DNA of 63,228 bases from Nemertoderma westbladi (Eukaryota > Animalia > Xenacoelomorpha): assembly GCA_032718475.1 (NCBI GenBank), contig JAUCBJ010007588.1, forward strand, positions 1-63,228, read 5' to 3'. The notes under the pieces are model-generated. The model saw only the letters and a list, made by a program, of their open reading frames with translations, was not told the origin of the DNA and did not search any database. Both the position numbers and the translations under genes were made by a program. Positions 1 through 62,812 of this stretch are shown here, piece after piece; position 1 is the first letter of the stretch; each line of letters starts with the position of its first letter.

Positions 1-1172
1 TGCCTTTGCTGGCCAGTTCCCCCCCGGTCGCTAGAATACTCTCAAAGGGATTTATAACTAAAATAGTGCAAGCTACCAGCTTATTGGCTGATGTGCTGTG
101 TGGAGATATCTGGGCTCAGTTTAATCGGCCAACCAGTGTAGGGAGGTTGCCTAAGCCTTGCTGTCCGTGTCGGCCAATAGAATTTGCGTAGGCGTTGATT
201 TCGACCTATCCCAGCGCTACTGAACTGAATTTCCTATCTCACTGCTCATCCTCTGTGTTGGACGGGAGCTTCGGGGAATAAGAGTTTTTGGTATACTCGT
301 ATAGTAGTAGTAGTCATATGATTTTATATGATTCTGTTGTTGTGTTCCCATTTTCGCCATAACACCGGCTTTTTGGGAAGAACTCTAGTAAAACTGCTTA
401 AATTATCGAAAGTATAAACTGTTACCTAACTAACCTAACGCAATCGACTTATCTGATCTAATTAACTCACTATTAATCATATTGTTTGTACTGTTATTTA
501 CCGTCAGTTATTAATTGTACCTATTTGTTAATGGAAATATTGCTCTTTGGATAATACGGATAAATCACCCAAATTTCCCAATTTTCTTGATACACTACAG
601 GTTAGAGAGACAGGCTATACATAACAATTGCGATTTATATTAATGTGGTGTGTATTGAATCTAATGTTATTTAGCAGACCCTACATGAGTCAATTGCTGC
701 TCTCTTTATGTGTGATCAAATATACTGACGGTCGGCAGAATAGTGTGTATGATTGTGATTGGTAACAAAGTATTTCCTAAAGAATACGCTTTATACTTTA
801 ATCATAAGCGGTATCGTTGCGTTTTAGTATAAGTCTTAGTTCTGTTTAAATAGATAGAGCGCCACGTCCTAAAGGAACTGTTAATATTTCCCGAAAGCCA
901 ATAATATCTGTCAGAAATTAATTATTAACGATCTGTCGAATAATACAGTAAGTTTACGCTGCAACCTTACACTGCAATAATAAAATTTAAGCATCCGAAT
1001 TCAGCCTCCCGGGTGTAGATCCATCGGGTGAATGATCGCGCATGGGCTGACTTCGGCTAATGTTTTGTGTATTAGCATAAATTGTTGTCGTATGCTAAAG
1101 GTGTTTTAATTAACTAAAAGACATATAAATTTTGGCAGGTTAAACTGCTAAAGGTCTTCAAAAGCGCGAACA
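1..1172 (+). mobile_element. LTR of the same BEL/Pao family (third subfamily; solo or 3' LTR, first ~30 bp outside the window)
   Basis: Reverse complement aligns along its length with LTRs 42463-43645 and 14041-15296. Ends in ...AAGCGCGAACA at 1172. The following sequence does not match the internal leader. Confidence 0.88.
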
Positions 1173-14040: not shown

Positions 14041-15296
14041 TGTACGCGCTTTTGAAGACCTTTAGCAGTTTAACCTGCCAAAATTTATATGTCTTTTGGT
14101 TTATAAATAGACTTTAGAAGTTGACAAATATTTAATACCAATAAACACAACATTAGCAGAAGCCAGCCTAGTGCGCGTCCATTCACCCGCTGGATATACC
14201 CGGGAGACTGGATTCTGAGGGCTTAGATTATTATTGCAGTGTAAGCTTACTGTATTATTCGATTGATCGTTAATAAATAATTTCTGACTAATATTATTCA
14301 CTTTCGGGAAATATTAACAGTTCCTTTAGGACGTGGCGCTCTATCTAGGTAAACAGAGATATGACTTATACTAATCACAACGGCAAGTCGGTAAGGCTTA
14401 TGATTCACGTATGAGGCGCATTCTTTAGGAAATGCTTAGTTATCAGTCACAATCAGGCACACTACCGGTAACACACAATACTGCTCACTAATTTGCCGAC
14501 CGTCAATGAATTTTATCATATATAAAGAGAACAGCAACGGACTCATGTAGTGCTTATCAAATAGCATTAAATTCACTACAAACCACAATAATATAAGTCG
14601 CAATCGCTATATATAACCCGTCTCTCTAACCTGTAGTGTATCAAGAAAATTGGGAAATTTGGGTTCTTTATAGATGTTATCCAAATAATATTCAACCAAC
14701 TGATACAAAATATGACAACAGCAAACAGCAGCACAACAATGTATGTTGAACCGATAATGCAAGACTGAACGGAGTTGCACCGATAACAGTTATACGCTCT
14801 ATAATTTAAGCCTACTAATGTTTCTTCTAAAGTATGAAAAACGAATTGACTCTAGAGCCGGTGTTCCTGGCCTAGATAGAAACAACACAACAGTAACAAG
14901 AAAAACAGTAAGACTGAACACTCCTAGCATGATCTGCCAAAATATCTCCACATCGACAGAAAAAATCGCTCTGATTGGCTGTTAAGCTAAACAAAGAACC
15001 ATGTGTCCAATGGCCGTTTCCATGTCAGCAACCAGCTGTTAGATGTCGTAAGCTGAATCATCAAGGCTAAGCTGTGCCAGGGTATTTGGTGCATTGCGGG
15101 TTTTTTGCCTTACCATGTCCGCCAAAGCACACATATAGAAGAATGACGTTTATGTCCGTTAAAACACCTATAACGGTACCTTGCGGGCGAGGGGGATATA
15201 TATATAGTTAGAGAGCTTTTTAGAGTATTCCAGCGCCTGGGGGGAAACTGGATTGCAAAGCAAAAGGGCCAGTTATATCCCACAGAAGCTTTTACA
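14041..15296 (-). repeat. 3' LTR of outer element (1256 bp)
   Basis: Nearly identical (about 3 differences seen) to 25843-26083 plus 43651-44665. Confidence 0.95.
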
Positions 15297-16400: not shown

Positions 16401-16445
16401 CCGGGCGCGATAGGCTGAATCTCCTCAGATTCTAGGCATATTGGT

Positions 16446-25831: not shown

Positions 25832-25842
25832 ATAACTGTTAT
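25832..25842 (-). promoter_or_regulatory. Non-tRNA primer-binding site, outer element (AUAACAGUUAU)
   Basis: Directly abuts the LTR terminal CA. Exact complement of LTR positions 44152-44162 and 14783-14793. Confidence 0.7.
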
Positions 25843-26083
25843 TGTACGCGCTTTTGAAGACCGTTAGCAGTTTAACCTGCCAAAATTTATATGTCTTTTG
25901 GTTTATAAATAGACTTTAGAAGTTGACAAATATTTAATACCAATAAACACAACATTAGCAGAAGCCAGCCTAGTGCGCGTCCATTCACCCGCTGGATATA
26001 CCCGGGAGACTGGATTCTGAGGGCTTAGATTATTATTGCAGTGTAAGCTTACTGTATTATTCGATTGATCGTTAATAAATAAT
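25843..26083 (-). repeat. Outer 5' LTR, U5-end portion (split by inner element)
   Basis: Matches 14041-14281. Confidence 0.95.
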
Positions 26084-27266
26084 TGTTCGCGCTTTCAGAC
26101 CTTTGGCAGTTTAACCCGCCAAATTATGATGTCTTCTAGATAATAAATCACTTTTAGTCTATGACAAGTATTTAATTCACTACACTAGTCGAATCCAATC
26201 TGTGCGCGATCATTCACCCGCTGGATATACCCGGGAGATTGGGTTCGACGGCTTAATCTTATTGCTATGTAAGCCTAATGTATTATTCGACTGACAGTAT
26301 TATATAATCTCTGACAATATTATTCACCTTCGGGGAATATTAACAGTTCCTTTAGGACGTGGCGCTCTATCTATACAAACAGAGTTATGACTTAAACTAC
26401 TCACAACGATATGGCTTAGTTATAATTCACATATATGGCGCATTCTTTAGGAAATGCTTCGTTATCAGTATCACTCATACACAATGCTGCACAATACTGC
26501 ACACTGATCTGCCGATCTTCACTGATTTTAGTTATATATAAAAGGAACACGGACCGACTCATGTAGGGTCTATCAAATAACATTAGATTCACTTCAAACC
26601 ACTTTAACATAAGTCACAATCGTTATATGTAACCTTTCTCTCTTACCTTCGGTATATCAAGAATATTGGGTTTCGGGGTTATTTATCGTTATTCCAAATA
26701 TAATAATTCATCAACCATATTATGAAGAACTGACAGTAAATAGCAGTATAACAATATAAAAGTATGCACAGTGATTCAGTGTGCGTTAAGTTCATTAGTT
26801 TATTTTGAGTTGTTGATTGTTGTGATCAGTTTGGTTTGATAACGGATATATGCCCTTTATAATTAAGCCTACTAGTGTTAGACTAAAACAGGAAAGCACA
26901 AAATATTTACAAGCCGTTCTCTCCTGGCTCAGGAAAGAAAGACCAACAACACTGAAAACTGATAAGAATAACCTTATTTACAAAGGCTTCCACCCAACAC
27001 AGAGAAAGAGCATAAAGATAGGAAAATTCAGTTCAGTAGATCTGTGATAGGTCGAAATCAAAATCAACTCAAATTCTATTGGCAGATACTTTCCCAAGCT
27101 GGTTGGACAATCAAACGTAGCCCAGATCCCTTCGCACAGCGAATCAGCCAATCAGCCGGTAGCTTGCGCTATTCGAGTTATAGATCCCTTTTTAGAGTAT
27201 TCTAGCGACTGGGGGGGAACTGGTTAGCAAGGCAAACGAATCAGTTATCCCACAAAAGCTTTTACA
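26084..27266 (-). repeat. 3' LTR of inner element
   Basis: Direct repeat of 42463-43645 with TG/CA ends. Confidence 0.97.
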
Positions 27267-27344: not shown

Positions 27345-29120
27345 TTAGTCTTTCTTGCGCGGACGGCGTTTATGCAGTTTTTTAAAGCTAGCAAGAGTCC
27401 TTTTCTCTTTGGGGCGAGCCACTTTACGAGGAGGGCTGTAGCTCCTAGGCGAAGGGTGCAATATAATTGCATCAGAAGGTGCAGGGTTACGATCGGTATA
27501 CCCGCCGGTCGAAGTACCTGGTTGATTAATATCAACCTCAGTGGAGCGAGGTCTAACGGCCTTTAGAGCGCGTCTCAGGACAGCAGCTCCTACGGGTCCT
27601 TGACGGGTCGTCTGGACACTAGCGGTGGGTGGACCGTGAGTGGTAAGGAACTTTCTCGGTTTAATGGTTCTCTCCAGCTCGCGTTCTCGGGTTCGATATT
27701 CATATGGTCGCCGAGATATTTCCTGTAGTTCAGGATGCGAGTTCACAAAGATGTCGCCATACTCAGGGTCCTGACGGATAAAATTGATCAGGTGATATGT
27801 GGTTATATCATTAGGGTTAACGTTTCTAAGGTATTTCCTGACAAACTTGGTGGAAATACACTCACCAACACGCTTCATTAACTCGTAACTTGGTACGCGT
27901 GTTTTCTGTTCAATTGACGCGAATAGATAAGGATGGAACGCGTAAACTCCCTCGTAAGCTCGTCCAGGGTAATAGCGATGTCGGGATTCGCAATGTAAAT
28001 CGGCGTTCGCTTCCCAAGCTCGGATGTATCGCAGGGTGATCATCTCGTCTACGCTCTCTAAATCGCGATTAAAGGGACAATTGTAACTTTCATGTCCTTT
28101 AAGTTGGCAGTAGTGACATTGAGTCATAAATTGTGGGCAGACGGCAAATATATGAGAGTTATTAAGCCGGCAATAAGCACAATATATTTCCATCATCGGT
28201 TGTTCGAGGAAATAGGAACAAGGTACGCTCGAGTCTAGAGGAGTGAAGTGGTCTCTCGATGCGCATAATCGACAACGTTTTCGGGAAACGTAGTTGGCGT
28301 GTCGATAATCGTACGCTGTGAGACGCTGTGGACCTTGATACCACTCTATGACATAATCATTGTCACTGCTCCGGGAAGCCGTAGGTTGAATCGCTTCTGA
28401 TTCAAAGCATACTGGTTCATCCTCCAGCTGCATAGACGAAGTGGGTGCGTCGGTTTCCGTAAGTGGACCCACTGTCTGTATTTCCACGACAGAATAACCT
28501 GTAGATATTCGGGGTCTTTGTATAACGGATGAATGTAGGTTCTGTATACAAACGTCTTGAAACACGGCAAATCCAGCGCTACTCAGTTTCTCCGCAGCTG
28601 AGTCTCTAAGACTGAGCTTGGTCAGCGCGCGGTCCTTGAACTGACTATCGACGTTACGGAACGGAGTCAGAAAGCGCCGGAAACATTCGAAACGTATGAA
28701 CTTATTGTGTTCGTCTAACTTGGCGAGTTTAGTTCCAAGTATTAACGGGTGAGCGCGTATGGTACGACTGCACACATCGGCTAGCCAACTGGCAAGTGCT
28801 GCGTTTTCAAAGATCGTGTATATAGCTAAGGAAGGGCGAAGTGGAACACTCATAAAGCTATATACTGCACCAGGCGCAGTTAATGGTCCATCAAAATATA
28901 AACGAGAGTAATGATCTCCATATACTTGCTGGTAATTGGTAGGATTTCCAACTTTGAAATTCCATCCATATTCTTGAAAGGCAAGATGTCCGATGGACGT
29001 CCGTTGTACTTTAGTAATGTCGATGGGTGTATTGGCATACATAGTGCGAAAGAAACCTCGGCCTTCGGCCCAAGGGGCAATCAGCTGAGTATCAACGAAG
29101 GGATATGGAATGTTCTCCAT
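27345..29120 (-). CDS. Accessory ORF-B, 591 aa: Cys/His cluster, CCHC knuckle, basic C-terminus; not env-like
   Basis: CRLC....H, CAYC.....H....C, CHYCQLKGHESYNC (CX2CX4HX4C). Ends KKLHKRRPRKKD. No signal peptide or TM helix evident. C-terminal half conserved in outer copy. Confidence 0.85.
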   Translation of the reverse strand: MENIPYPFVDTQLIAPWAEGRGFFRTMYANTPIDITKVQRTSIGHLAFQEYGWNFKVGNPTNYQQVYGDHYSRLYFDGPLTAPGAVYSFMSVPLRPSLAIYTIFENAALASWLADVCSRTIRAHPLILGTKLAKLDEHNKFIRFECFRRFLTPFRNVDSQFKDRALTKLSLRDSAAEKLSSAGFAVFQDVCIQNLHSSVIQRPRISTGYSVVEIQTVGPLTETDAPTSSMQLEDEPVCFESEAIQPTASRSSDNDYVIEWYQGPQRLTAYDYRHANYVSRKRCRLCASRDHFTPLDSSVPCSYFLEQPMMEIYCAYCRLNNSHIFAVCPQFMTQCHYCQLKGHESYNCPFNRDLESVDEMITLRYIRAWEANADLHCESRHRYYPGRAYEGVYAFHPYLFASIEQKTRVPSYELMKRVGECISTKFVRKYLRNVNPNDITTYHLINFIRQDPEYGDIFVNSHPELQEISRRPYEYRTRERELERTIKPRKFLTTHGPPTASVQTTRQGPVGAAVLRRALKAVRPRSTEVDINQPGTSTGGYTDRNPAPSDAIILHPSPRSYSPPRKVARPKEKRTLASFKKLHKRRPRKKD

Positions 29121-30050
29121 ATTCCGAAAGTCGTATGCCTAATATGTCTTCCATTGATGGTAGTGGTAAAGAGCAGGGGAAGACCTATGTCGTATTCAGA
29201 AATATTCCGAAATACGATCTCAGTAGGAGGATTGTTACATTCGAGGACTATCTCCAACTGAATTTATCCCCAGTGCGATAAGGGAACAACCAGTTCAATG
29301 CCTCAGTTGTTATACATAAGATTATAAGATTTATATCTCCAATCATTGAGGGAGGTGAACAACCAGATTTATGACACACAATGGTACCAGTTGTTCACCT
29401 ACTAACTGCGTGTCCTTTCAGTCCTTGTATCACGGTTGTGAATTTAAGGAAATCCGAGGTGGTTGATTATCTAATCAACAACGAGAGGGTGGAAGTGGAT
29501 ATCATAAATATCAACAGAATGACACATGGACAGGAGATGCGGACACCAATATTAGCATACAAATAAACGGTAAGGGGGTGGAGGTTGATATCATAAATAT
29601 CAACAGAATATGACATTGACAGGAGGTGCGGACACCAATATTAGCATCCAGATGAACAGTAAGGGATGGGAGGTTTAGTGCTCGTTTCCCGAAGCTCCGA
29701 GCACGTTGGGAAGAGAAGGTGGGATGAAATATGTCGTATCTTTAGTAACAACATATAAGAGGGTAAGAGGAGTAGAGAGGAGGGAGGATATTCGATAGTA
29801 TCCATAAGATACCACAATGGATGTGTTTTCCGTCACATCATCATTCATTCCTGCCTTTTAATTGTGACACTGATCACAATAATTACAGGAAAACGATGAA
29901 GGAAGGGAAAGTTACAGCCTCCCGAAGGAGACCGCCCGCGAGCACCCGTGCCCCGGGGAAAACTATTCACATTATGGACCCTGGACATTAACCCATGTCT
30001 CTTCTCCAGTGGTTCTCCTTTATTTGTTCGCATCAACCTTCTTCCACGTT

Positions 30051-30428: not shown

Positions 30429-32080
30429 ATCTGCTATACGAGTTCACCAATATTATAATGAGTTTATATATCGTTAGGCGAGCGGGCGTCGCTGCCTATT
30501 TCTCCCTTGCCCCCGGACAGTATGAGATTCTCAGCGCCGATGTACCGCTGTCGCTATACTTTCGCCAACGACGTAGCCGTACAACGACAACGATAACCGG
30601 CACAAGTCACTCAACTGTCCGTCCCAAAGGCTTAGATGTACTTCAGGTTTTCCTTGGAGAGTTAGGTTACTTTTACGATTGCGACTAGCTACTGTAAACA
30701 CACTTTAGCAGTAACATTCACCTATAAACTCACAAATACCACACAACTGGTCACAACTACGCACATTCGGGCCATTTGTCCGTTAGTCAATGCCTTCCAG
30801 AATGTCACTGTATTATTATGTATCCTTGGATACTAGTAGTGCGCTATTTATTCCCTATGCTATTCAATGGGACAAGCTTTCTATTGTTCTTTTAACTCCA
30901 TTCTAATTCTAGCATGGTTGTTGCTATGGTGACATTATGCAAAGCTAGCGGTAGAATTAGGGTAATTCCAATGCATACAGATCTGGGATGTTATTTAATA
31001 GTAATTCTTTAATAGTCAATGTCCTGTTTTATACATGACTTTATGAATTTTATCGGCTATTGACTATGTTTGGGAGACTTTCGCACACTCATATGCATAA
31101 TAAGATAAATCTCCGCTCCCTTGATCTATTAATTAATGGAATATTGGGAATGTTATAAATTGCGTAAAAATGGCAATTTATTAAATTCATTAAAAGGCAT
31201 GAATTTAAATTATTCCCTGAAATTTTATTATTTGATAATTAAATGGACATATTTTGATTCTAGAACATGTCTAGGGACACAAGATCCTTAATTCTATGAC
31301 AATTGTCTTTTTTAAGAATATCGGTAAATGCTACGATATCTTAATTGACTAGAATTGTTGAAGGATCTGAATTTTACAGATTTTGATTGATTAGATTTGC
31401 AAATATTAAATAATTAATATTTGAGATGGGCACCGATTTATTCCAGAACTTGTCTGGGGACGTTAACCACTGATTCTAGAATTTGTCTTTCAAGTATATC
31501 GGTGGGTGCCGCGATATCTTAATCGACTAGAATTACAGATGGTCAAAGGGTTTAACAGATTTATTTTGCGTTATACGCTACTGTTAAAGGGACATCACGC
31601 TACTATATGTATTATTTAATATACGGTATGAGAGCAATATCGTACGAAGCAATGTCAGTGTGAAGAGGCAAGTCGTTTCCAAGGTCTACCCAGAGCTTGG
31701 TTTAGCCGAGACACGAGGATCTGAACTTTGCATTCCTAATACTCTGCCTACCAATAATACTTAAATATAGTAGTGGCTTTATTGTACTTTAATAAGTACG
31801 GACATTTCATCTTACTGTAGTTACGTATTTATAATATAATACGGACAGTAAGGAAATAGAAAAATAATTATTTCTTCGCCGTCACACTAAATATAATATA
31901 AGTAATTACGTACGTAATAAACACGAATATATTGCACTATTCTACAAAATAATCGCTAAATAATATTCTACTAAATTAAATAAAACGATTATAATAAAAT
32001 TACATAGTAATACATACATAAATATAAAAATAATAAAAATAATATAAAATAATAGAGTCACACGCCCACTCCGAACGATA

Positions 32081-35000
32081 TTAAGTCGGGGAGTCCCTAG
32101 ATGTCGGTTGGATTAGGGAAGTGGTCGTGGGAAGAGTTTCTTGCTTTCCATAGTTTCCGGAGAGCTCTCTGTCTCTTTCCAGTAAACATAAACGTCCCAC
32201 CGGGCGATTGAGCTGTTGAGTCTCAAAGACTATCCCTGGTTTATTAAAGTTACGACGCATGACGACGAGCTCTACTGATCGCACCAAACCATCGCTCGAG
32301 ATATGAGTCTCGATGATACGTCCTGTTTGCCATCGCTTACGTGGGAGATCGGGGTCCACAATAAGCACCATGTCTCAAGCGCTGACGTTTTCTTGCTGCG
32401 CAAACCACTTAGTTCGAAGTTGTAGAGTGGGCAGGTAATGTTTCTCGAAATGGTCAGCGAAACGACGGGATAGCAACTGCATAAGTTGCCAGGTTCGACG
32501 GCAGTACTCGTCTCCGTCTGTGATCTCCGATCGTGGGAGCATGGCTACGGGTTTCTTCAGTAGAAAGTGCGCGGGTGTTAGCGCTTCCAGGGAATCAGGA
32601 TTTGAAGAGACTGGCATAAGCGGTCTTTCGTTGAGATAGGCGGCGATTTCCTCCATTAACGTCCGCAATAGTTCGTCGGTGAGATAAGCGCGACAAGGCA
32701 CAATAAAGTGGAACGCAGTCTTCACGCTCCTAATCAATCTCTCCCAACTTCCTCCCCACCAAGGGGCGTCGGCGGCGTTGAAGGTCCAGCTAGACGCTGT
32801 TATCCTTAGCTGATCGTCCACCTGTCTTTTGTTCCAGTCCTTTACGTAGGCTTGAATTTCGTTGTTGGCGCCAATGAAGTTCGTTCCCTTATCCGATCTC
32901 ATCGTGTTACTGGTTCCGAAGCGAGCGATCTGTCGTCGTAAACTCAACACGAAGCTGTTGGTGGATAGATCGTTTACCATATCGAGATGGATAGCTCTAC
33001 AAGTCATACAAACGAAGATGACACACCATCTCTTGACTATAGTCCGGGCACGATATACTTCAATAGGGCCAAATAAATCCACACCGGTATTAGTAAAGGG
33101 TGGTTCGTAGAAGCTTACTCTTTCCCTAGGTAATTCTGCCTCTCGCTGTGTCAAAGGCCTACTGAATGCTTTCCTACAGGGTATACAGTTCCTAAGAACT
33201 TGGTTCAGAGCCCTACGGGGTTTATAAAAATAGTAGCGAGTTCGAATTTCGCTCAGAACTCGTTCTCTACCAGCATGGTACAGTTTGCTATGAACATCTA
33301 CAATTATCTTGATTTGTATGTCAAGATTTCTAATGAGGATGGGAAACTTAGTGTCAAAGGATAATGGGGCGTTGGTCAGCCTACCTCCAACACGTATTAA
33401 CCCATCTATCATGGTACTAGAGAAGCGATCCCTTAAGCGCATCTGTGGATTTCTTAACAACAGGAAATACTTATCGGAATCCTCATAGCATTGTAGGAGT
33501 CTCAGCATCTGTTTGTTGGTTTCATCATGCTCCTGGTAACTGATCTTCTCATTTAGAAACCTGTTGGATATCTTGTATTTAGGAAGATCTTTAACAACAT
33601 GGACTCGTGCAGATGTTGATGGAGCATCATCACTATTGGTCTTTGTCCCGGAGTAACGATAATGAAAACATCGTTTCAGATAGGTGACAGCTTTACAGAG
33701 CCGATTCCAGGAACTGTAGTGACGTATCGCTCTCTGCAAGAGAGGTGAGAGTCCTTGCGAAATATCTGGTATTCCAGATTTCCAATCCTTGTCACGGATT
33801 TCCAAGACTTCTTTAGTCGTGGCGGTGGGTTTCTGATCCAAAGCATCCTCTCCGGAAGTAAATAATACAGATAGATCAACCGCAGGTTTAAACAACTTCG
33901 ATTTACTCGCTCGAGTTTTGGGTTTAACTTTCTCCGCTCCCTTGGCCTGTCTGATCTCTGCTGTTGTGAGATGGGGAGGCCATTCTTCTTCTTCTCTGTA
34001 GAGAAAGTCGGGTCCTCCTAACCATTCGGGAGTATTTACCAATTCCTTTGGAGTCGCTCCTCGGGACGCGATGTCTGCTGGATTAATCGTTCCGGGGCAA
34101 TGTCTCCATTGGTCCATCGTCGTGCGACTAAGTATGATGGCTACCCTGTTGGTAACGAAGACGCTGAACTGACAGACTTCATTGGTTATATACTCTAACA
34201 CGAGTAAAGCGTCGGTCCAATAGACAGTTTTCTCTAATGGATAGTCAATCTGTTCGGTTACATTCCGGCCGATGGCTGTAGCGTATAGAGCCGCTTTTAA
34301 CTCCGCTCGAGGAACTTTCAACTTGTTGTTGATTAATGCTTTAGAAGTAACCAAGGCGACTTTGATTCCATCCGGAGTTTCCACCCTTAGATAGGCTACT
34401 ATACCTATTCCCATATCGCTGGCGTCTCCAAACACATGGAGTTGATAGGAATACGTAGGGAGAACATGACAAAAATATGAACGGGAAATTATAAAATCCT
34501 CGATAGCTGGCAGAGAATCTTCCCATTTCATCCACTTCTTCAATAATTCTCCCTTAAGTGGATCGTCCCATGAGTGGTTTTCAAGCCACATTTGTTGTAC
34601 CAAACTAAGAGCAATCAATATAACTGGGCTAATAAATCCCAATGGATCGAAATAAGTGCTCAGTATACTTAAGCAAATCCGTTTGGTTCGAACTGGATTA
34701 TCTCGCTGTTTTAGCTGGAAAAACAGGATATCTCGCTCTGTGTCCCATTTCAAGCCGAGTGTCTTGGTTTCTGGCAGATCATCTTTGATCAAATCGAGAT
34801 CTTTCGCTCCTCGATCTTCCGCAGGGATCGACTCCAGAAACTCACGGGAGTTGCTGGTGAATTTGGTTAATCGAAACCCACCTCTTTTTAAGCACTCTAC
34901 CGTTCCTTTAGCGACCTCAATGGCTTCATCAACTGATGGGAGGGACTTCAGATTGTCGTCCATGTATATGTCTCTCTTGATGTTGTCGATCACTTCCTTA

Positions 35001-38000
35001 GAGAATGCCTCTCGGTTGTCCTCTGCAGTGGTACGCACTACCGAACAGGCGTTGGAAGGGCTTGAGATTATCCCAAAGGCCTGGATAGTCATCCAGTACT
35101 CCACCGGTTTCTGGTTGAGGTCTCCTTCGGGCCACCACAGAAATCGTAGACTATCTCGATCCCTATCTAACACCTTGACTTGTAAGAACATGCCTTCTAT
35201 ATCGGAGGCGAAAGCAATCGAATATTGTCTCAATCTTAAAAGAATTCCCAACAAAGATTGAAGCAAGTTGGGTCCGGGTAATAATTCAGAGTTAAGGGAT
35301 TGACCCATGTAAAGAGCGGAGCCATCAAACACTACTCTCACTTCATGTGGCTTACCGGGTTTAGGAACGTAATGGTGGGTTAAGTAATACGTTCTTTCAG
35401 TCACAGGTGTTTCTTCCGGTACTCTCTCCGCGTATCCCTTACTAATAAATTTTTCCAGCTGTGTTTGATACATTGCTTTAGCTGAAGAATTAGCCGTAAG
35501 GCGTCGATGGAGTTGCGCGATTCTTTTTTCCGCCAAGGGTCTGTTATTGATGAACTTCGGTTCTCTCTTGCGGAAAGGTAGACCGACTTCATACCTACCT
35601 TGATCTTTGAGGAAACGTGTAGTTGTCTCTTGGATCTGCTTGGCCCTTTCTTCTTCCACCGATAAGGCTTTATCGTAGGAATTGGGCTCTACCGCCTCTT
35701 GCGTAAAGAATCGTACAGCATGTTCATCTCGAGTCTTGGCATTGCAACGCTCAATGACGTCATTTAACTCGTCGTTATAAGCTTCTCATTCAGATGGATA
35801 GAGAAGTTGACATAAGTTAACTTGGTTTTGCCAAGCCTCGTTTTCCTTAAGGAGATCGATGGTATTCTCCTCATCAAAAAGCTGGTGAACGTCGTCGTTA
35901 TCTGAGGAGTATGGAATTCCCTCAGTTGAATCATCTCCCTCACTAGCATCATCTTCCCATTCACTCACCTGGCAGACTCTCTCTTGCGGTAGTCTTTCTC
36001 TGAGTGTTCTACGGGAAGGGCCAGTAAAGTACCAACCTACTCTAGTTCTTACCGCATAGGTCTGTAGGGGCTGCGGTTGAACAGGCCGTTTCTCTAATGT
36101 CTCCAGCGCCTCATGCGCGTTTTGGCCGATGAGTATTTGCACTCCAGGATAATCAGTCTGGAATCGAGGTATGTTAAGATGTTGGATGCTCTCATCCTCG
36201 TCCCAATTATAAAGGTCTGCTTGAGTAGTAGCGAAGTTCTTTATAGCCACCATTTTCACTGACCTTATGCTATGTTCTCCTAGTTCGTCCTGGGGGGTGG
36301 ACAACGCTCCTACATAATAATCCGCTGTGATTGTAGATTTCCAAACTTGCATAATGCCGGACATGTTGAGCTTAGTTTGGAACTTGAGTTGTCCAGCAAA
36401 TATATCTTCGGCTAGCTCTTTGTCGATGAATGTTCCTGTGCTGCCGGAGTCCAGGAGGGCGTTCACTACATAACTCCTCTTAGGTCCGTGAACCCTTACT
36501 TGTACCACAGGAAACTCTCGGATCCCTACATTGGAAGATGGCTCTTTCCAAGATGGTTGTCGTTCAGAAGTAGTTAGAGTGAAGTCGTTGTCTGTATCTT
36601 TTTCATAGGTGAGTGCTCGATACACTGCGGTATTTATCATGTAACAGGATTCGTTTTCGTCGGAGAACTCGTCTGTATAGAATCCTTCCATCTCAGATTG
36701 ATCAGTGTCGTTCACATCACTGAATTGGACATGTAGCTCGGAATCACTTACCTGATTCGGACTATTTCGCTCGAATTCAGTGTGCAATAAGATATGATGT
36801 TTCGCACCACACTTTGCACACCTTATGTCAGAGAAACAGGTACGCCGTTGGTGTCCTTGTCTGAGGCAATTATAACATAACCGCTTATCCCACATGACTT
36901 CGCGTCTCTCCGTTAATGACTTCTTCAGGAATTCATCACACATATTTAAACGGTGGGTCCCGTCACACAGCGCACATTTCGGTTTGATGTTACTTACCTT
37001 ATTTTGAGTCACATTGTGTACACTTGCCTTTTCTTCGGGCTTTCTCACCGGAATTCTCTTGGGAGACGTGGGAGGAGTTTTTCTTACCTGATCTCTCCTG
37101 TCATTTGTTCGAGACTTGAATTTACTTACCTGATCTTTAGGCATTTTATTCACGTAATAAGATCTCTCAGTGTCTTTCCCGCTATCTTCTCCTTGAGAAG
37201 TCTGGCTTTCGCCGTCGTCTGTATAACACACTGGTGTTACCTTTCTCCTAGAGAGGGGTTTTTTACTTACCTTGTTTTCCGGTGTCTTCTCTCTGGACAG
37301 TTTCAGGAGCTGTAATTTCACTTCTCCATCTAGGAATAACATGAGATCAGCCATGGTAGGGTCTCGTCGTTGTTGTTCCATCATATATAACACTTTCTTA
37401 TCCCAGCGTGTACCTACTCCACCTTTCGGTAAAGTAGAAGCCACTGCTCTAATAACCATAGTGTTCTGATACTCATGAGACTTACCTAGCCAATCTAATT
37501 GTCTGCAGATCTCCTGGATCTCATCGGAAAACTCGATAATCCCGCTGCTAATAAACTTTCGGGGCGCTACTAACTTTGCATACAAATACCCAGCGATGTT
37601 ATTCCTATTACCATACCTGATGTTTAGTGTATCCCAAACTTGTCTTAATCCGTCTGGATGTCCAATAAACTTTAACGCCATTAACTTGGGAGATCCTTCC
37701 AAACACTCGATGAGGTATCTAAGTTTTTCTCCATTAGATAGTACAGAGTTCTGTATGTTATCTTTGTAATATTCATTAAAAGGTAACCATTTCATCTCAT
37801 CTCCATTGAACTTGACGATCTCTCCCACCTTTACTGCTTGCCGGGCTTCGGTTCTAGCCATTTGACGCGTAAAACTTTCTTGGGCCATCGTGTTATTTAA
37901 TATCGAGTTATCGGTATATAAATTTCTCGGATTATGATCAGTTCTATATGGAATATCATTATCAACAGGTCTATAATTACCCTTAATAGGGTTCACTATA

Positions 38001-40216
38001 GGAGTTTCTACTTCGCTAGCAGTATAGATGCGTGTAGGCTCCACACCTTGCGCATGCGATACTTCAGACCTAACAGGTTGACACATTGTTACAGAGGGTG
38101 GTGGTATACCCCTTTGAGTATTTACTAATTTATCGCGTTCTAGCGCGATACTTTGCTGCACTTCTTGCAACTCGAGCCTACTTTCCCTTACTGTGCCCTT
38201 GAATTGCTGGACAGTCTCCTGCATCTGCCCGAGCAGGAGATCCATCCCCCGCCGTCTCTCATCCACCCATTCGACCGCCGAAGCGGGAGTCGCCAACGTT
38301 GTAGCGGGCGGACGAGGGACGACGGGCGACAAATTATGAATATTTCGCTCGGGGTCCAGAACCTGAACTGTCTCTTGGGCAGTTCTACGGGGCACAGGTA
38401 GCTTAGTGCTATGCAGAGGGAATTTAGAGGTAGTCTCAGGGAGCACAGGTGTGTCTATCACCGAAGGGGTGATTTCCAGAACAGGCCTAATTACTTCAGG
38501 CTCATCTACTATAGTAGGGAGTCTTTCTATTTTAATTATTTGGTCTGTGGGCTCTGTACTACCTAAGTTGGTGTTATTTAGTTGCCTTCTAACAGCTGGA
38601 GGCAAATCAGGCAATTTCTGTCGGTGGAATGTTCTTTTACGTCTGCTTAGACGAGATCTATTTCCATTGCCTTCAGTATCGGTGGTATCGCCTTCCTCAG
38701 ATGATGTATATCCCTGTCTTTTGGGAGTAGATCGATTCATCATCTGCATATTACTAGCTGTTAACTGTTTATTTATGCAGTCTTGATTCTCCTGAATGTT
38801 TTCCAATTCTAATTGGATGGTTTCTTCAGCCGCTCTCCGTTCTGCTTCTGCCACTGCCTCTGTCGCTTTTCTTTCCGCTTCGGCCGCTGCCATTGCCGCC
38901 TTTCTTTCTGCTTCTGCCGCTGCCTTTTCCGCTGCCGCTTTTCTTTCAGCTTCGGCCGCTTTTGCCTCTGCCGCTGCCTCTGCCGCTGCCTCTGCCGCTG
39001 CCGCTTTTCTTTCTGCTTCTGCAGCTACCACTGCTGCTTTCTTTCTGTCTTCTATGCGTTTTTTCTTTACTTGCTCTTCTTGGACTCGTGTCAGGCGGAG
39101 TTGTTCATCAAATTTGGCCTGATTCGCAGCCCTCATTTCCACATCGATGGCATCCAACACAAGCTTGGTTCCTTCACTATTAGGGCTAAGTCCCTCTAAC
39201 CTTCTCCTCAACTCGTCATCACCTAAAAAACGTTGATAGTCTGACAGATAGATGTCAATGGCATCCCTCTTATGCGGTTTCTCTGCCGTCGCTTCACTTT
39301 CCACTTGGGAAAAAGTAGCGTCTGTTGATTCTCCATGGGTTGAGCGCTCCTCCAGCTGAGTTTTCCACTGAGCTGTTCCTTGAACCTGGCGACTCACCCG
39401 TTGAAACCACGTTTTTACGGCAACTTGCAACGACGTGTCTTGTCTTCGTTTAGAAGCCTCCTCAAAGGCCGATAATATTAACCTGATTCGTAGAATTCTT
39501 TCTCTTACTTGATAAAGCAGCTGTCCCTGCTCTTGAGGTCCCTGAGGTTGTTGTAACAGTTGTTTTTCTACTCGCTCCATAGAGCTGAAGAATCCCTGTG
39601 CGTATCCGGCTGCGGACCTCTTCCACACAGCGGGATCTATGGTTTCTTTGGCTATTCCCATCCGGTGTATGTCTTCCCAGGCAGCTTCTGATAAATCAAA
39701 CGGGAGTCCGGGTCCGGGGAAGTTCCATTGCGACTCGACCATGGACTTCAGTTCTTCTCTTGTGTATCCAGCATAACTATCTCTAGTTGAACGCTGGCTT
39801 CTCGCCCAATCGATCTGGTGTTCTTCCACAGCGATCAATAACCTGGTGAGTACGGCTGCAGGAAGGATGAGAAGGGGATCCGAATAAACCGCATCCGTCA
39901 TCTTTGCTCCGCGCTCGGGTGTCAGCTCTACAGTATCATCACTACTGGAACTGTTGGGCCGCTGAGAAATAAGTTCTTGTCTCGCGGGTTGTTGCTGTTC
40001 TGCTGCTTCTTGGTCCCGCTTGACCTGAGCTCGAGTGCCTATGATAGACCTACGATGTTGGACCAGCCTAGGTTTGGTTATTACTACAGGAGGGATGACC
40101 TTCCTCACAGTGGGAGGTGAACTGAACTTACGACTAGACGGTTCTACGCCTCTATCTGAGTCGCAGATAGTTACATCTAATAAACTGTCTGACAGGTTCT
40201 GCTTAGTATCAGACAT
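32081..40216 (-). pseudogene. Single-frame BEL gag-pol polyprotein (2712 codons) with two in-frame TGA stops
   Basis: ORFs 35786-40216, 32375-35659 and 32081-32371 share one frame. Three Zn knuckles, protease LLDSGS, RT YMDD, RNase H HVFGDAS, integrase HHCC with GVDLFGP / SDKGTNF / GGSWERLI. The second stop replaces the Gly of the conserved GD.V motif. Confidence 0.93.
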
Positions 40217-41519
40217 GTTTATGTATACAGTTGAATGTCTACTGCTGTATTACAGTCTGAGCAAGTCTAGTAACTCAGTATTAACTGCTAGCCTAGTAAT
40301 TAATTACCGATACTGCTACTCAGTGTAGCGTGATATATATGATATATTAGAATACCTGTATGCTTATAGTATATATAACTATAAGTATTATTACAGACTA
40401 GGTTTATCACAGAATACCGGTATAATTTTAGCACAAATATATATAAATATATAATAGGCCTATCGGGAATACCGGTATACAGCTTACAGTTTGTAGTATA
40501 TATAATTCTGGACTAGAATTAATTATAAGTACCGGTATAATTTCAGCCTAGATTTATAGAAATAAAGATAATAGGCCTATCGTAAATACCGGTATATCAA
40601 TTATTTTAAATAATTGAATTTCTGAATTTTAGGGTTACTTGGTTACTTTAACTTACTTTATTACCGTTATTTAAGCAGTAGTCCAACTGATATTGAGACC
40701 TAATTGTTGTATGGTAGGCCTACTTATTTATAAATCGTTAGATTTGATTTATAATATATATATACCCGTTTTAATGGGTTTAGTCAATGTTTGAAATAAA
40801 TGTTATTATTTCTGGGGTAATCACTATACAAAGCGGTACGCTTTCAGTGAAGTGTCACTTATAGGACACTAAAACAAATAATACTAATTTACCTAAGTTA
40901 CTTAATACTACAAATTACGTACAATTCGGGTGAGATTACAATCTCTAAATAAACACAAAAATTTACAAAACACAAAATACGAATTTTCAGGGTAATTTTA
41001 CAAGAAGTCTACAAACCAGCCTAACAAAGGGTTAGAATCTGGTTATTACAACGGACAGGGTACTGCGGTATTTGAAAATAATACATAGTAGTAAATACAC
41101 TGCGTTGTCCAGATAGGAAAATACCACCGCCTGACGACCTATAGCCGTATCGCTATAGGTTCTACGTTATGTATCACGGAGTGTTCCTACCTAGAAGTTA
41201 ATAGAGCTAATCGAACGTGCCTATCAACCACTTTACAACACAAATATAATGCCTACACTAATTACTTTCGGAAAGCACTGTACACTAAACCCTAAATTAG
41301 GTACGAGTACTTGTATAACATATAATCTGTAGTTAAATATACTTGAACAGCTAAAAGAACCACGGCATCTGCTGGAGTGACCGATGCACAAAATCACCAG
41401 TCTTTACCTACGCCAAGCAGCCCGTGTAGTACCGGGGTTAATTTAACTATAGCGGTATGTATAACAAACACAATAACTGTAGGAACAAACTTGGGGAATG
41501 AATGTTGCGGATAATCGCT

Positions 41520-42110
41520 AATCGATAAATAAATATTACGCTACGCGTACAAACTACTCAAACAAAATGCAGACCGAACACTGACAGACTACTATCAAGC
41601 CTAAACAAACTACGGTATATGCAGACTCCGAAATAATTAGGTAGTATGCGTTCTAACCCAGTAGTACGACTTATTCTTTAATTGGGGGTTTACCTTACAG
41701 CATTCGCTGCCCCTACTTCCTAACCGTTCTTTATCGGACAAGTGATCTACACACGCTGCAATCCGTTCAGACCTAACAACAGCCAGACAACTATCCAGCC
41801 TACAAATTATCTAAATAAATATTATACGCTACCCGTACAGACTTACACAAACAAAGTACAGACTAAACGATGGCAGACTACTCTCAAGCCCAAATAAACT
41901 ACAGGACATGCAGACTCCGAAATGATTAGGTAGTATGCGTTCTAACCCAGTAGTACGACTTATTCTTTAGTTGGGGGTTTACCTTACAGCATTCACTGCC
42001 CCTACTTCCTAACCGTTCTTTATCGGACAGGCTCTACACACACTGTAATCCGTTCAGACCTAACAGCAATCAGACAACAGTCCAACCTACAAATTATCTG
42101 TACAATCTGA
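41520..42110. repeat. ~290-bp tandem duplication in the long leader (counterpart at ~24900-25480)
   Basis: Block tagtatgcgttctaacccagtagtacgacttattcttta occurs twice in the inner leader; a homologous block occurs twice in the outer leader. Confidence 0.8.
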
Positions 42111-42271
42111 TCAGGCTTACATGCCTTCTGTTCAATACTGGCCTACAAATAAATAAAACTGACAGAAATAGGCCTAAGTAAAATCCCAATAAAAACCAGG
42201 CGTCCCCGATTAATTATTAAGACCTACCGGCTTATAAAGATCAAATCGAATAATACTGCTGTACTTATACG

Positions 42272-42420
42272 GGAAGTACCGGTTAGGACAGTTGGGCCTA
42301 CGGACCTACAGAAGTACCGGTTCTGGCAGTTGGACCTACGGACCTACGGAAGTACCGGTCCTGACAGTTGGGCCTACTGACCTACTGAAGTACTGTTCAG
42401 GTTTACCGGTTGACCGGTAC
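42272..42420. repeat. ~38-bp repeat x3-4 just inside the PBS (counterpart at 25650-25800)
   Basis: gaagtaccggtt..cagttggRcctacggacctac units. Confidence 0.8.
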
Positions 42421-42450
42421 TTTCAACTTTATTGCTTACTGCAATAAAGC

Positions 42451-42462
42451 TATATCCGTTAT
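42451..42462 (-). promoter_or_regulatory. Non-tRNA primer-binding site, inner element (AUAACGGAUAUA)
   Basis: Abuts the LTR terminal CA. Exact 12-nt complement of LTR 43218-43229, also present in the 3' LTR at 26839-26850. Confidence 0.75.
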
Positions 42463-43645
42463 TGTTCGCGCTTTCAGACCTTTGGCAGTTTAACCCGCCA
42501 AATTATGATGTCTTCTAGATAATAAATCACTTTTAGTCTATGACAAGTATTTAATTCACTACACTAGTCGAAACCAATCTGTGCGCGATCATTCACCCGC
42601 TGGATATACCCGGGAGATTGGGTTCGACGGCTTAATCTTATTGCTATGTAAGCCTAATGTATTATTCGACTGACAGTATTATATAATCTCTGACAATATT
42701 ATTCACCTTCGGGGAATATTAACAGTTCCTTTAGGACGTGGCGCTCTATCTATACAAACAGAGTTATGACTTAAACTACTCACAACGATATGGCTTAGTT
42801 ATAATTCACATATATGGCGCATTCTTTAGGAAATGCTTCGTTATCAGTATCACTCATACACAATGCTGCACAATACTGCACACTGATCTGCCGATCTTCA
42901 CTGATTTTAGTTATATATAAAAGGAACACGGACCGACTCATGTAGGGTCTATCAAATAACATTAGATTCACTTCAAACCACTTTAACATAAGTCACAATC
43001 GTTATATGTAACCTTTCTCTCTTACCTTCGGTATATCAAGAATATTGGGTTTCGGGGTTATTTATCGTTATTCCAAATATAATAATTCATCAACCATATT
43101 ATGAAGAACTGACAGTAAATAGCAGTATAACAATATAAAAGTATGCACAGTGATTCAGTGTGCGTTAAGTTCATTAGTTTATGAGTTTGTTTTGTTTGTT
43201 ATGATCAGTTTGGTTTGATAACGGATATATGCCCTTTATAATTAAGCCTACTAGTGTTAGACTAAAACAGGAAAGCACAAAATATTTACAAGCCGTTCTC
43301 TCCTGGCTCAGGAAAGAAAGACCAACAACACTGAAAACTGATAAGAATAACCTTATTTACAAAGGCTTCCACCCAACACAGAGAAAGAGCATAAAGATAG
43401 GAAAATTCAGTTCAGTAGATCTGTGATAGGTCGAAATCAAAATCAACTCAAATTCTATTGGCAGATACTTTCCCAAGCTGGTTGGACAATCAAACGTAGC
43501 CCAGATCCCTTCGCACAGCGAATCAGCCAATCAGCCGGTAGCTTGCGCTATTCGAGTTATAGATCCCTTTTTAGAGTATTCTAGCGACTGGGGGGGAACT
43601 GGTTAGCAAGGCAAACGAATCAGTTATCCCACAAAAGCTTTTACA
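42463..43645 (-). repeat. 5' LTR of inner element
   Basis: Direct repeat of 26084-27266. Confidence 0.97.
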
Positions 43646-43650
43646 ATAAT

Positions 43651-44665
43651 TTCTGACTAATATTATTCACTTTCGGGAAATATTAACAGTTCCTTTAGGA
43701 CGTGGCGCTCTATCTAGGTAAACAGAGATATGACTTATACTAATCACAACGGCAAGTCGGTAAGGCTTATGATTCACGTATGAGGCGCATTCTTTAGGAA
43801 ATGCTTAGTTATCAGTCACAATCAGGCACACTACCAGTAACACACAATACTGCTCACTAATTTGCCGACCGTCAATGAATTTTATCCTATATAAAGAGAA
43901 CAGCAACGGACTCATGTAGTGCTTATCAAATAGCATTAAATTCACTACAAACCACAATAATATAAGTCGCAATCGCTATATATAACCCGTCTCTCTAACC
44001 TGTAGTGTATCAAGAAAATTGGGAAATTTGGGTTCTTTATAGATGTTATCCAAATAATATTCAACCAACTGATACAAAATATGACAACAGCAAACAGCAG
44101 CACAACAATGTATGTTGAACCGATAATGCAAGACTGAACGGAGTTGCACCGATAACAGTTATACGCTCTATAATTTAAGCCTACTAATGTTTCTTCTAAA
44201 GTATGAAAAACGAATTGACTCTAGAGCCGGTGTTCCTGGCCTAGATAGAAACAACACAACAGTAACAAGAAAAACAGTAAGACTGAACACTCCTAGCATG
44301 ATCTGCCAAAATATCTCCACATCGACAGAAAAAATCGCTCTGATTGGCTGTTAAGCTAAACAAAGAACCATGTGTCCAATGGCCGTTTCCATGTCAGCAA
44401 CCAGCTGTTAGATGTCGTAAGCTGAATCATCAAGGCTAAGCTGTGCCAGGGTATTTGGTGCATTGCGGGTTTTTTGCCTTACCATGTCCGCCAAAGCACA
44501 CATATAGAAGAATGACGTTTATGTCCGTTAAAACACCTATAACGGTACCTTGCGGGCGAGGGGGATATATATATAGTTAGAGAGCTTTTTAGAGTATTCC
44601 AGCGCCTGGGGGGAAACTGGATTGCAAAGCAAAAGGGCCAGTTATATCCCACAGAAGCTTTTACA
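43651..44665 (-). repeat. Outer 5' LTR, remaining portion
   Basis: Matches 14282-15296. Confidence 0.95.
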
Positions 44666-45475
44666 ATAGGTGTAGTCCCATAGATATTAAAGTAATTTAT
44701 GTGTCAATTTTCAGTAACGTGATGCACGGTCGTCATCAGGGTGTAATGGCAATCTCTGATCTCCACGGTACTTCAACCTGCAGATCTGTCTGCTGTCAGA
44801 CAACAGGCAACAGCTTTTACTGCATACTGTTACTGTATAAACAGCAAACATCGTTCTGATTATTTATATTTATGACGAGTAAGGGTCTTCTTGATGAGCC
44901 ACGGCTAAAGTCCCTTACTTGTAATAAATATTATAATTTGAGTATGCTTACGCCACGAAAGGCATCGATCCATTAGATGAACTTGTTCTGATTTATATGT
45001 TGCGGAGTAACCTAACAGCCATCATCGCGGGACTATAGTCGACACCAGCAACGACTCCCATCTGCCCCTCTTTATCAACCGTCATCCATGGGACTTGAAC
45101 AGTACTTGATTACAGCATTGAAATGTTTTTGATGTTTTGTTTTGAAAGTAAAAAATATAGAAATCTGGAAGTTTTGTTTGTTTCAATTTTCAGGCAGTCA
45201 CATCCCACCAACCCACAGTCCCATTCCCACTATCCCATGAACATCTGTTTCATTATAAGTGCATTTCTTTAGTATATCATCAGTGGCGGATCTAGGACCT
45301 AAATCCCATATCGGACAGTCGGAATAATTCCAATCTCGATGATAGGAATTAATCATTAAACCGATGAGATTCAAATCCCATCTCAAATTAACAGCAAAAC
45401 AATAAACGAAATTCAATAGCTTACAGTTATATTTGATTGTGTTAAAAAAAGTTAAAAGAAAGAAGAAGTTAAATT

Positions 45476-45635
45476 TACGGAGCCCCTAAGGGGACATTAA
45501 AATAAATAAAAATTCTAACACGAACTTCGTGTTACTAACACGAACTTCGTGTTACTAAGACGAAGTTCGTGTTAGTAACACGAAGTTCGTGTTAGAATTT
45601 TTTTTTATTTTTAATGTCCCCTTAGGGGCTCCGTA
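45476..45635. mobile_element. 160-bp palindromic MITE, IS3EU-type ends
   Basis: TACGGAGCCCCTAAGGGGACAT...ATGTCCCCTTAGGGGCTCCGTA with 6-bp TSD TAAATT (45470-45475, 45636-45641). TAYGG termini with a 6-bp TSD fit IS3EU. Confidence 0.8.
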
Positions 45636-46987
45636 TAAATTGCATATCCATTAAAATATCATGAAATTGATACGGGACGGCAGTTTACAGTCGATTAAAA
45701 AGGCCACAGTAAGATTTATAAAATGAAGAATAAGTATAAAATCAACACACAATATTATCAATATAGATATTGAAGACATAATTCAATAAACAAATATTAT
45801 AAATAAAATATATATTCCGTATTATTAATCAGTCTACATACTGTACAGCATTATAATCCAAACTTTTAAACAACTGGTAGAATTCGTGGAGTTGCACTAA
45901 ATCCAATCGGCGGCATTGATTCTCAAATGTGGGCAGTCCAAATCAATGAAAGTGGTGGCCGGGATATGCTGATATGATAACCACGGAACCGGAACGGCGA
46001 TCTCGTGGCATATGGCTCTATGCGCTGGACTGCTGGATGCTTTTTATAGTAAGATCGTTTAGCCAACTCTATTAGGCAACCAAAAACAAACAGCGTTACT
46101 AACAATTAATACATTAGATATAAATACATCAGAGACTGAGAGACTACCTTTGCCACTGGTTCAGTCCGGTATCATTGTTAGCGTTTTATGAACCACCTAC
46201 ACCCACTCATCCTCAGCTCAGACCCCCATGACGAGCGGTAACCCTAACCGTTGGTCGATTCCTCTTTGACTGGAAACATACGGTTCGGCCCATACAAAGT
46301 CATTATCCTCCATCATAAGATCTACAGTATGTATCGGTATATCGTTCAGTCGTTTTCTTCCATTGTCACTACTGTAGTAGTGATTGGCTCCGCTTCGTGG
46401 GTATTCCGGGTACCCCATTCGACGTATTCCCACCTCCCCCTTGTTGTTCCGGGTACCCCCGTTCGCCATGATTTTCGCATCTCCTTGCTGCCTTGTGGTT
46501 ATTCCGGGTACCCCTGTTTGCCGTATTCGCTTCTCCTCGTGGTTGTTCCGGGTCCGGGTACCCCCGTTCGCATTTGCATCTCCTCGAGCAGTCGAGGAGG
46601 TTCCGGTCCAGGTACCGGTGTTCGCCGTACGTAGGCCTATTCATTCATAAATTGTTGTTTTTAAAGACCTACCTACACCTACCTACATTCACCCTACACG
46701 TGCATCTACATGTAGGCTACACCTACCTACATGTAGCCTCTATGTAGGCTATACCTCTACGCAAAAGTTATATCCCTTTCAGTAAATGGAAGCAATTCTT
46801 GCCAATTCTAAAGTGAAAGTAAATAATAGTATCACAAGGTTAATCACACCAAATACCAGTAATTCAACAGCGGTAGGCCTAACGGTACCGGTATTTGTAG
46901 CACGTCCTACTGTACTATACTACAGTACAGTGGGACTTGCCCTGAACCTATATTAATTAAGTGATATTATTTATATCACTTAGTAAT

Positions 46988-47695
46988 GGTACATGCTAAA
47001 AAGTGGAATGAGCTAGAATGACCTAGAATGATCTAGAATGACCTAGAATGAGCTAGAATGACCTAAGAATGACCTAGAATGAGCTATGAGGAGATTATAG
47101 AATGCAAGAATGACCTAGAATGACCTAATAATCACCTAGAATGAGCTATGGGGATATAATAGAATGCAATACCGACCTATACCGAGCTGTAACAAGATAA
47201 GAATCGAGTCGTTTGAGTCAGGGATATGAATCGTTTTTTTCGAGAGCCAGCAATATGTCGTAGTATGGCGATTTCTAGTAAAGAGCAGGTAGTGGATAAG
47301 TTCTTTACATACAGCGCTTCGGTTTTGGAAACTACATACCGGAAGCCTATTAGTGCCGGACATAAACAAGGTAGTAAGCAGCATTCTTCTAAGCGAGCAT
47401 ATTACTACAAATAATAGTATTACTAATAATAATAGCTCATTCTAGGTGATTCTTATCTTGTTATAGCTCGGTATAGGTCGGTATTGCATTTTATCATCTC
47501 AACAGAGTTCGTTCTAGGTGATTCTTATGTCATTCTAGATAATTCTAGATCATTCTTGCATTCTATCATCTTCTCATAGCTAATTCTTAGCTCATTCTAG
47601 ATCATTCTAGGTCATTCTAGATCATTCTAGATCATTCTAGGTCATTCTAGATCATTCTAGATCATTCTAGCTCATTCTACTTTTTAGCATGTACC
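46988..47695. mobile_element. 708-bp foldback (MULE-like) element with 10-bp subterminal arrays
   Basis: TIR GGTACATGCTAAAAAGT, (CTAGAATGAN)n arrays in opposite orientation, 9-bp TSD CTTAGTAAT (46979-46987, 47696-47704). Confidence 0.88.
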
Positions 47696-47752
47696 CTTAG
47701 TAATATTTACTGAAAAAGTAACAGTAGGCCTAATATTGATCAAAATAAACAA

Positions 47753-50737: not shown

Positions 50738-62812
<12,075 letters not shown>

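Follow-up and report, generated by a model that had tools for sequence, protein, structure and literature searches.

The window, i.e., the whole stretch of 63,228 nucleotides analyzed here from a contig of the xenacoelomorph Nemertoderma westbladi (JAUCBJ010007588.1, assembly GCA_032718475.1), contains BEL/Pao retrotransposons whose 5' long terminal repeat (LTR) is not followed by a tRNA-type primer-binding site (PBS). Which molecule primes the reverse transcription of such elements is the question raised by this locus. Among the LTR superfamilies, BEL/Pao has received the least study, and priming by tRNA has been assumed for it rather than shown (PMC8742986). According to the ICTV profile of the Belpaoviridae, replication is poorly understood and is primed by tRNA-Arg or tRNA-Gly at a PBS of 18 nt (PMC8742986); an earlier sequence-only reading of this DNA likewise stated that BEL/Pao elements are generally described as tRNA-primed. 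The same reading had proposed that the primer is taken from the element's own RNA. This proposal is supported as the best reading: with a probability of about three in four, the sequence data point to Tf1-like self-priming by a piece of the 5' end of the RNA that would be cut by RNase H, with transcription start, cleavage, and priming as putative steps.

Two Nested BEL/Pao Elements

Self-comparison of the window revealed two LTR elements, one nested in the other and both on the minus strand, besides a third LTR type at the window start:

26084-43645, minus: inner BEL/Pao element, LTRs of 1183 nt that are 99.2% alike
42463..43645, minus: inner 5' LTR, 1183 nt, TG..CA, 10 differences to the inner 3' LTR
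26084..27266, minus: inner 3' LTR (self-comparison)
35786..40249, minus: Gag-protease frame with DUF1759, zinc knuckles, and LLDSGS protease motif, ending at an in-frame TGA
32375..35785, minus: RT-RNase H-integrase frame with PF05380 and PF17921 (domain and motif matches)
27345..29138, minus: additional frame of 597 codons with CCHC-like motifs, located between pol and the inner 3' LTR
14041-44665, minus: outer element, target duplication 4/5 bp
43646..44665, minus: outer 5' LTR, upstream part, separated from the rest by the inner element, 2 differences to the 3' LTR over 1020 nt
25843..26083, minus: outer 5' LTR, downstream part, 1 difference in 241
14041..15296, minus: outer 3' LTR, intact, 1256 nt (self-comparison)
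1..1172, plus: third LTR type, truncated at the window start and either a solo or a 3' LTR, with the homologous site at 413-425 and without a PBS inside the window

The inner element sits inside the outer 5' LTR and is flanked by an exact 5-bp target duplication (ATAAT). Both elements have two TG..CA LTRs and a short target duplication (5/5 bp inner, 4/5 bp outer). The inner element combines a PF05380 pol and a DUF1759 gag with the order PR-RT-RH-IN, and its closest protein homologs are metazoan BEL/Pao polyproteins with 39–45% identity. Its RT-RNase H-integrase frame retains YMDD, the four acidic motifs of RNase H, and the D,D,E motifs of integrase. With DUF1759 Gag, domain order, PF05380, 1.2-kb LTRs, and an extra downstream frame it shares the features of the Belpaoviridae (PMC8742986), but it is larger (17.6 kb compared to the 4.2–10 kb given for the family) and lacks a tRNA PBS; neither window element carries the 18-nt site for the 3' end of tRNA-Arg or tRNA-Gly. 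Membership in BEL/Pao thus rests on protein phylogeny, and the PBS is the described trait that differs.

Some further properties of the two elements were recorded. A single in-frame TGA (35786-35788), which may be a lesion or a read-through signal, separates Gag-PR from RT-RH-IN. The homolog search with the extra 597-codon frame was empty, and its CCHC look-alikes are weak (all <0.9); a corresponding frame with CCHC-like motifs is found at 15375-16424 in the outer element, which has suffered large internal deletions. The inner leader (40250-42450, 2.2 kb) contains repeats of 38, 289, and 126 nt as well as many small hairpins, and a conserved GTAAGT donor-like word is located near 40655.

A Primer-binding Site Complementary to the Own LTR

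The inner 5' LTR terminates with ..GAACA at 42463 and is directly adjoined by ATAACGGATATA (42462-42451). The lack of a TGG after this end, pointed out in the sequence-only reading, holds for 100 nt downstream of both 5' LTRs. The features relevant for priming are:

42451..42462, minus: inner PBS, 12 nt, immediately after the LTR, sequence ATAACGGATATA
43218..43229, minus: site complementary to the inner PBS, in the inner 5' LTR at LTR position 417-428, putative self-primer
26839..26850, minus: complementary site in the inner 3' LTR (12-mer search)
25832..25842, minus: outer PBS, 11 nt, immediately after the LTR, sequence ATAACAGTTAT
44152..44162, minus: complementary site in the outer 5' LTR (LTR position 504-514), exact complement of ATAACAGTTAT
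14783..14793, minus: complementary site in the outer 3' LTR, exact complement of ATAACAGTTAT
42427..42449, minus: hairpin with a 9-bp core, one base after the inner PBS (sequence and predicted folds)

The inner PBS is the exact reverse complement of the LTR site at 43218-43229, and all coordinates originally assigned to this pair were confirmed. Even with one mismatch allowed, the inner 12-mer occurs at only three places in the window, namely the PBS and one site per LTR. The outer complementary site aligns with the inner one, and the claim that PBS and LTR site change together in the outer subfamily was borne out: each PBS pairs fully with its own LTR, the cross-pairs reach only 7 and 6 nt, and the change is thus compensatory in two of two window elements. 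Both duplexes end directly at the LTR terminus (offset 0), as had also been read from the sequence. Being 12 and 11 bp long, these pairings fall within the published in silico definition of self-priming, which is a complementarity of at least 10 bp that begins 0–5 bp after the LTR (PMC6317226). The core of the hairpin that follows the PBS is common to the inner and outer elements.

The pairing might also be an inverted repeat that arose by chance in the AT-rich sequence or through a single copying accident, and both the base composition and the quasi-palindromic nature of the outer site (a caveat that had been raised before and was upheld) lend this some plausibility. However, dinucleotide shuffling of the LTR attained the observed match length in 0 of 3000 cases for the inner and 2 of 3000 for the outer element, the two pairings occupy a homologous position with different letters, and the same signature recurs in 10 of 12 distant relatives (see below). 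When internal positions were treated as pseudo-PBS, 1 of 15,100 attained 12 nt, and the true outer duplex has a predicted stability of -10.1 kcal/mol, i.e., approximately twice that of the self-dimers (-5.0 and -5.5 kcal/mol). We consider coincidence to be negligible as an explanation.

No tRNA-like or other Rfam match was obtained in the region 40200-44700, and no tRNA gene was detected anywhere in the window. The absence of a tRNA-type site together with the exact pairing to the own LTR right after the 5' LTR makes priming by the element's own RNA likely. A further copy of the inner 12-mer that had been suspected in a tandem-repeat unit is absent from the actual sequence.

Primer-binding Site Types among Host Contigs

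Sequence data of the host comprised seven runs, all consisting of assembled contigs and none recorded as RNA, in which the BEL/Pao family is abundant and diverse. For the PBS survey, contigs from four runs were aligned to the outer PBS, where other PBS types appeared as loose contig ends; two of these runs, X1 and X2, represent one sample. One PBS type has other bases than the inner PBS at two of its 12 positions, one of them adjoining the LTR; it was found in 11, 5, and 6 contigs of X1, X2, and X3, respectively. A second type (six contigs in X1), when joined to the following reference, would agree with the third LTR site in 12 of 13 bases, so that, upon joining these two cells of the alignment table, it seems to fit this LTR. 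Further cells among the rows listed are mixtures with an agreement of 0.78–0.89. Because the contigs are too short to join a PBS to its LTR site, these numbers describe variation of the PBS and not covariation, and linked covariation of PBS and LTR within the window family refers to two elements only.

The survey also bears on the earlier prediction that elements with the third LTR type should possess a correspondingly altered PBS. This prediction came true only in part: a type with the 12/13 match seems to exist, but the predicted change at the first base was not recovered. The last base of the third LTR site is C, and a G at the first PBS base is absent among the variants listed at the 1% cut-off, a result that proves nothing either way. 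The altered first base of the type with two differences to the inner PBS counts against the self-priming reading. The existence of several PBS types in one host fits badly with a single tRNA primer. Run X4, whose RNA origin is only a guess, yielded no usable transcript start or splice joint and was counted neither for nor against any reading.

As a separate observation, nine of the ten differences between the two inner LTRs lie in one 19-nt patch (43183-43201), 17–35 nt after the complementary site, and two of them are present in a contig of run X3. This patch possibly stems from gene conversion by another copy.

Self-pairing in Distant BEL/Pao Relatives

A pol profile search of metagenomes recovered 80 loci with 38–43% identity, whereas the same profile found no relative among viral contigs; the conserved LTR motif had 0 matches in metagenome and viral contigs. 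Direct repeats were present in 35 of the 80 loci and the LTR end could be defined in 14, of which two duplicates (of L058 and L075) were dropped, leaving 12 relatives with an identity of about 41%. An initial test of these for junction matches at offsets 0–1 only gave no self-match. The offsets were then widened to 0–5 and the splice donor was fixed as GT[AG]AG (..YAG introns) after reading the sequences, and the test is in this respect tuned post hoc, although 0–5 is also the published range (PMC6317226).

With these settings, the PBS of nine of the 12 relatives pairs over 11–15 nt across an exon junction within the LTR, at offset 2–4. In all nine (L002, L005, L010, L020, L043, L049, L058, L068, and L075) the LTR contains a GTAAGT..YAG intron, and the junction created by its removal is the exact complement of the PBS. 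L045 pairs directly with its own LTR (10 nt, offset 3). For L036 an exact match was not obtained; by eye, its layout is that of the junction-pairing loci, with one mismatch. The only locus of the 12 with a TGG within 5 nt of the LTR (PBS at offset 3) is L035, which has no self-match and is a natural control. Shuffled PBSs attained the observed length in 0 of 200 cases for nine loci and in 1 of 200 for L043. In each of the 10 matching relatives, the best partner of the PBS is the own LTR or that of a sister, and off-diagonal pairs of 11 were observed only among L002, L005, and L036. Since these three are sisters in the tree, the 10 matches correspond to approximately nine families. In 13 additional loci whose LTR end was picked by a scan, the top match was a junction in nine (10–15 nt) and contiguous in four (8–12 nt); seven of the 13 exceeded all 20 shuffles of a control that destroys splice sites and is lenient.

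Matching relatives and window elements have several properties in common. The pairing starts 0–4 nt after the LTR end in all 12 matching elements and has A-pyrimidine at its end in every one of the 10 relatives and the three window LTR types, followed by C in eight of these relatives and again in all three window types. An A[AT]TAAA hexamer is located downstream of the site in each of the 10 relatives and in both full window LTRs. Differences concern the loop, which spans 742–755 nt in the window elements compared to 62–278 nt in the relatives, and the make-up of the primer: the window pairings are contiguous, and no junction match with a GT[AG]AG donor was found, so that the window elements do not belong to the splice-junction primer type. 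A shortening of their loop by splicing at a donor-like word (inner LTR position 621) was considered and discarded, as no joint supports it. In L068, the 5' LTR copy (1-214) lacks the intron exactly at its GT..AG ends and the 3' copy (6769-7265) keeps it; the former may derive from genuine splicing, or two kinds of copy may have been mixed during assembly.

These data also bear on two other explanations. According to the first, a host tRNA half or an internal tRNA fragment is the primer and the LTR match is secondary. Priming by half-tRNAs is reported for some Copia lineages (PMC6317226), but the PBS differs at several positions between the two window elements, further types exist in the host, and 10 relatives have different PBSs that each match their own LTR, which renders this explanation very improbable. 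The second regards the pairing as a conserved long-range RNA structure or switch, involved in packaging, dimerization, or translation, with priming by another small RNA or by a protein. The leader is rich in hairpins, the hairpin behind the PBS has a possible alternative partner in the bases upstream of the site, and covariation is by itself no proof of priming. However, the distance between LTR end and pairing is 0–4 nt in 12 of 12 elements, a range that also includes the start of the TGG-type PBS in L035 (offset 3), the A-pyrimidine end is shared, and no other primer site is evident. A purely structural role is accordingly regarded as unlikely. Self-priming has gained independent support from the pairings of the distant relatives and the PBS polymorphism in the host.

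In a pol tree (43 rows, midpoint root, without named references for the clades BEL, Pao, Tas, Sinbad, Suzu, Dan, and Sailor), the inner element was placed on a long branch beside the tRNA-type L035 with a support of 0.867, outside any clade of self-pairing loci. A common origin of the self-pairing trait is thus unsupported by this tree.

Location of the Complementary Site within the LTR

A primer cut from the 5' end of the RNA requires that the complementary site is part of R, and the sequence-only reading had left room for two sources, the 5' copy of the site and, if it lies in U3, the copy at the 3' end of the RNA. Of these, the 5'-copy (R) version is the more likely one. The inner and outer LTRs are 33–40% alike at positions 101–380 and 69–87% alike at positions 601–1183, and LTR divergence begins upstream of 43267 in three runs, which fits a U3 that ends just before the site. 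The border of conservation is not clean, though, since the segment that directly follows the site (positions 429–500) shows as much divergence as U3 (17–50% alike). If R starts at the site, it would be approximately 700 nt long.

The possibility that the pairing involves the U3 copy at the RNA 3' end rests on TATA-like words that overlap and precede the site: the inner site is preceded by a TATAAA at a distance of 11 nt, and TATA is found near the start of each of the three LTR sites. Furthermore, the inner LTR contains a single poly(A) hexamer, which lies 660 nt downstream of the site and makes a short R far downstream possible:

42550..42555, minus: ATTAAA, candidate poly(A) signal, sole A[AT]TAAA in the inner LTR (position 1091)

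Against this possibility, the other two LTR types have not retained the upstream TATA word of the inner LTR, and a cut in the U3 copy would presumably sever the 3' R needed for strand transfer. In the relatives, moreover, the LTR keeps the intron whose removal creates the match, which would fit transcription and splicing of the 5' copy only. Overall, it appears improbable that the 3' copy serves as primer.

Predicted folds are compatible with the 5'-copy version for certain transcript ends. The PBS duplex forms with a probability P of about 1 when the RNA starts at the site or 11 nt before it and ends at 42420 or 42330, and is lost (P 0–0.03; penalty 2.7–7.4 kcal/mol) with a start at least 23 nt upstream or an end at 42200, bearing in mind that folds of such length are unreliable and depend on the RNA ends chosen. 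On the opposite strand of the LTR, a TATA-box-like word followed by an AP-1-like word (42912-42925, plus) is kept in the inner and outer LTRs and represents a possible antisense promoter.

A Model for Self-priming

In the preferred model of priming by the 5' copy, transcription would start at or shortly before the complementary site (LTR position about 380–417), which would be the start of a long R. The site would then fold back over about 750 nt onto the PBS, beside the stable hairpin, and, as happens in Tf1, cleavage by the element's RNase H would follow immediately behind the paired bases (A-pyrimidine, then C). This would release a 3' end, 0 to 2 bases from the LTR, from which minus-strand DNA would be synthesized across U5 and R. 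Following strand transfer, the copy in the 3' LTR would provide the site anew, and during plus-strand synthesis the primer would be copied such that the PBS is rewritten to match it. Copying of the primer back into the PBS is a standard step of LTR replication, and such rewriting would cause PBS and LTR site to change together.

On a broader scale, we lean, by a narrow preference, towards a scenario in which an extensive branch of the BEL/Pao elements of animals left tRNA priming for self-priming. Most of its members would splice a 5'-LTR intron to build the primer, whereas the high-copy, intron-less window family would use a 750-nt R-U5 loop and a primer that drifts freely because each cycle rewrites the PBS.

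Comparison with Known and Predicted Self-priming Elements

In Tf1, the primer consists of the first 11 bases of its RNA, which are freed by RNase H (PMC7175516 and PMC5341516); the account of an 11-nt, RNase H-cut 5' segment in the sequence-only reading agrees with the former source. Self-priming is established for Tf1, and elements from fungi to vertebrates have also been implicated in it (PMC4600332); eight self-priming elements have been named (PMC6934838), and the mechanism has also been predicted outside the Tf1/sushi group, for Tcn1 and the plant Copia element TAR (PMC6317226).

Like the window elements, Tf1 and Tf2 of Schizosaccharomyces pombe, Tj1 of S. japonicus, and the Tf1/sushi group have no tRNA PBS but an 11–12-nt PBS that pairs with the own LTR. 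They belong to Ty3/gypsy, whereas the window elements are BEL/Pao and have a loop of ~750 nt and a putative transcription start and cleavage. The Tf1/sushi group is defined by an RT of the Ty3/gypsy chromovirus lineage, and the window pol is of the Pao type. The best reading is therefore that the window family works like Tf1 without being a member of Tf1/sushi. The statement of the sequence-only reading that the Tf1 PBS begins with ATAAC proved correct (PMC11042837). That this start is shared with Tf1 is probably coincidence or convergence, because the PBSs of the relatives start otherwise.

For Tcn1 (Gypsy) and TAR, Houba, and Osr-1 (plant Copia), self-priming was called by the in silico definition into which the window pairings also fall (PMC6317226); these elements belong to other superfamilies and hosts, and there, too, self-priming is a prediction. 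The fungal GalEa Copia elements with their Conserved Hairpin Site likewise have no tRNA PBS and carry a hairpin right after the 5' LTR, but their authors detected no LTR complement (PMC5445492), whereas the window elements have an exact complement and a hairpin after the PBS.

No self-primed BEL/Pao element was found in the titles, abstract openings, and passages covered from the literature on BEL/Pao priming and on intron-built primers. The window adds an intron-less, offset-0, long-loop form of self-pairing and an independent sample of relatives that includes a tRNA-type control. If the proposed mechanism is true, BEL/Pao would be the third superfamily after Gypsy and Copia to use self-priming, which would make it a repeated invention. 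It would presumably free the elements from the host tRNA supply and from tRNA-fragment defenses, and could explain why PBS-based annotation misses such elements. With its high copy number, several PBS types, and two compensatory variants in one locus, the window family is a good test case, and its contiguous primer contrasts with the splice-built primers of the relatives.

Other Features of the Window

The minus strand at 1877-5269 contains a pair of frames resembling a non-LTR retroelement, with a 24-nt tandem array inserted in frame and without a Pfam match; it may resemble HERO/NeSL-type elements. Long satellites extend over 6459-9099, 51140-53832, 55090-57771, and 61000-62646, with the units (TGAC)660, 22-nt, 32-nt, and 6-nt. 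Two inverted-repeat elements of foldback/MITE-like appearance are located at 45476-45635 and 46980-47703.
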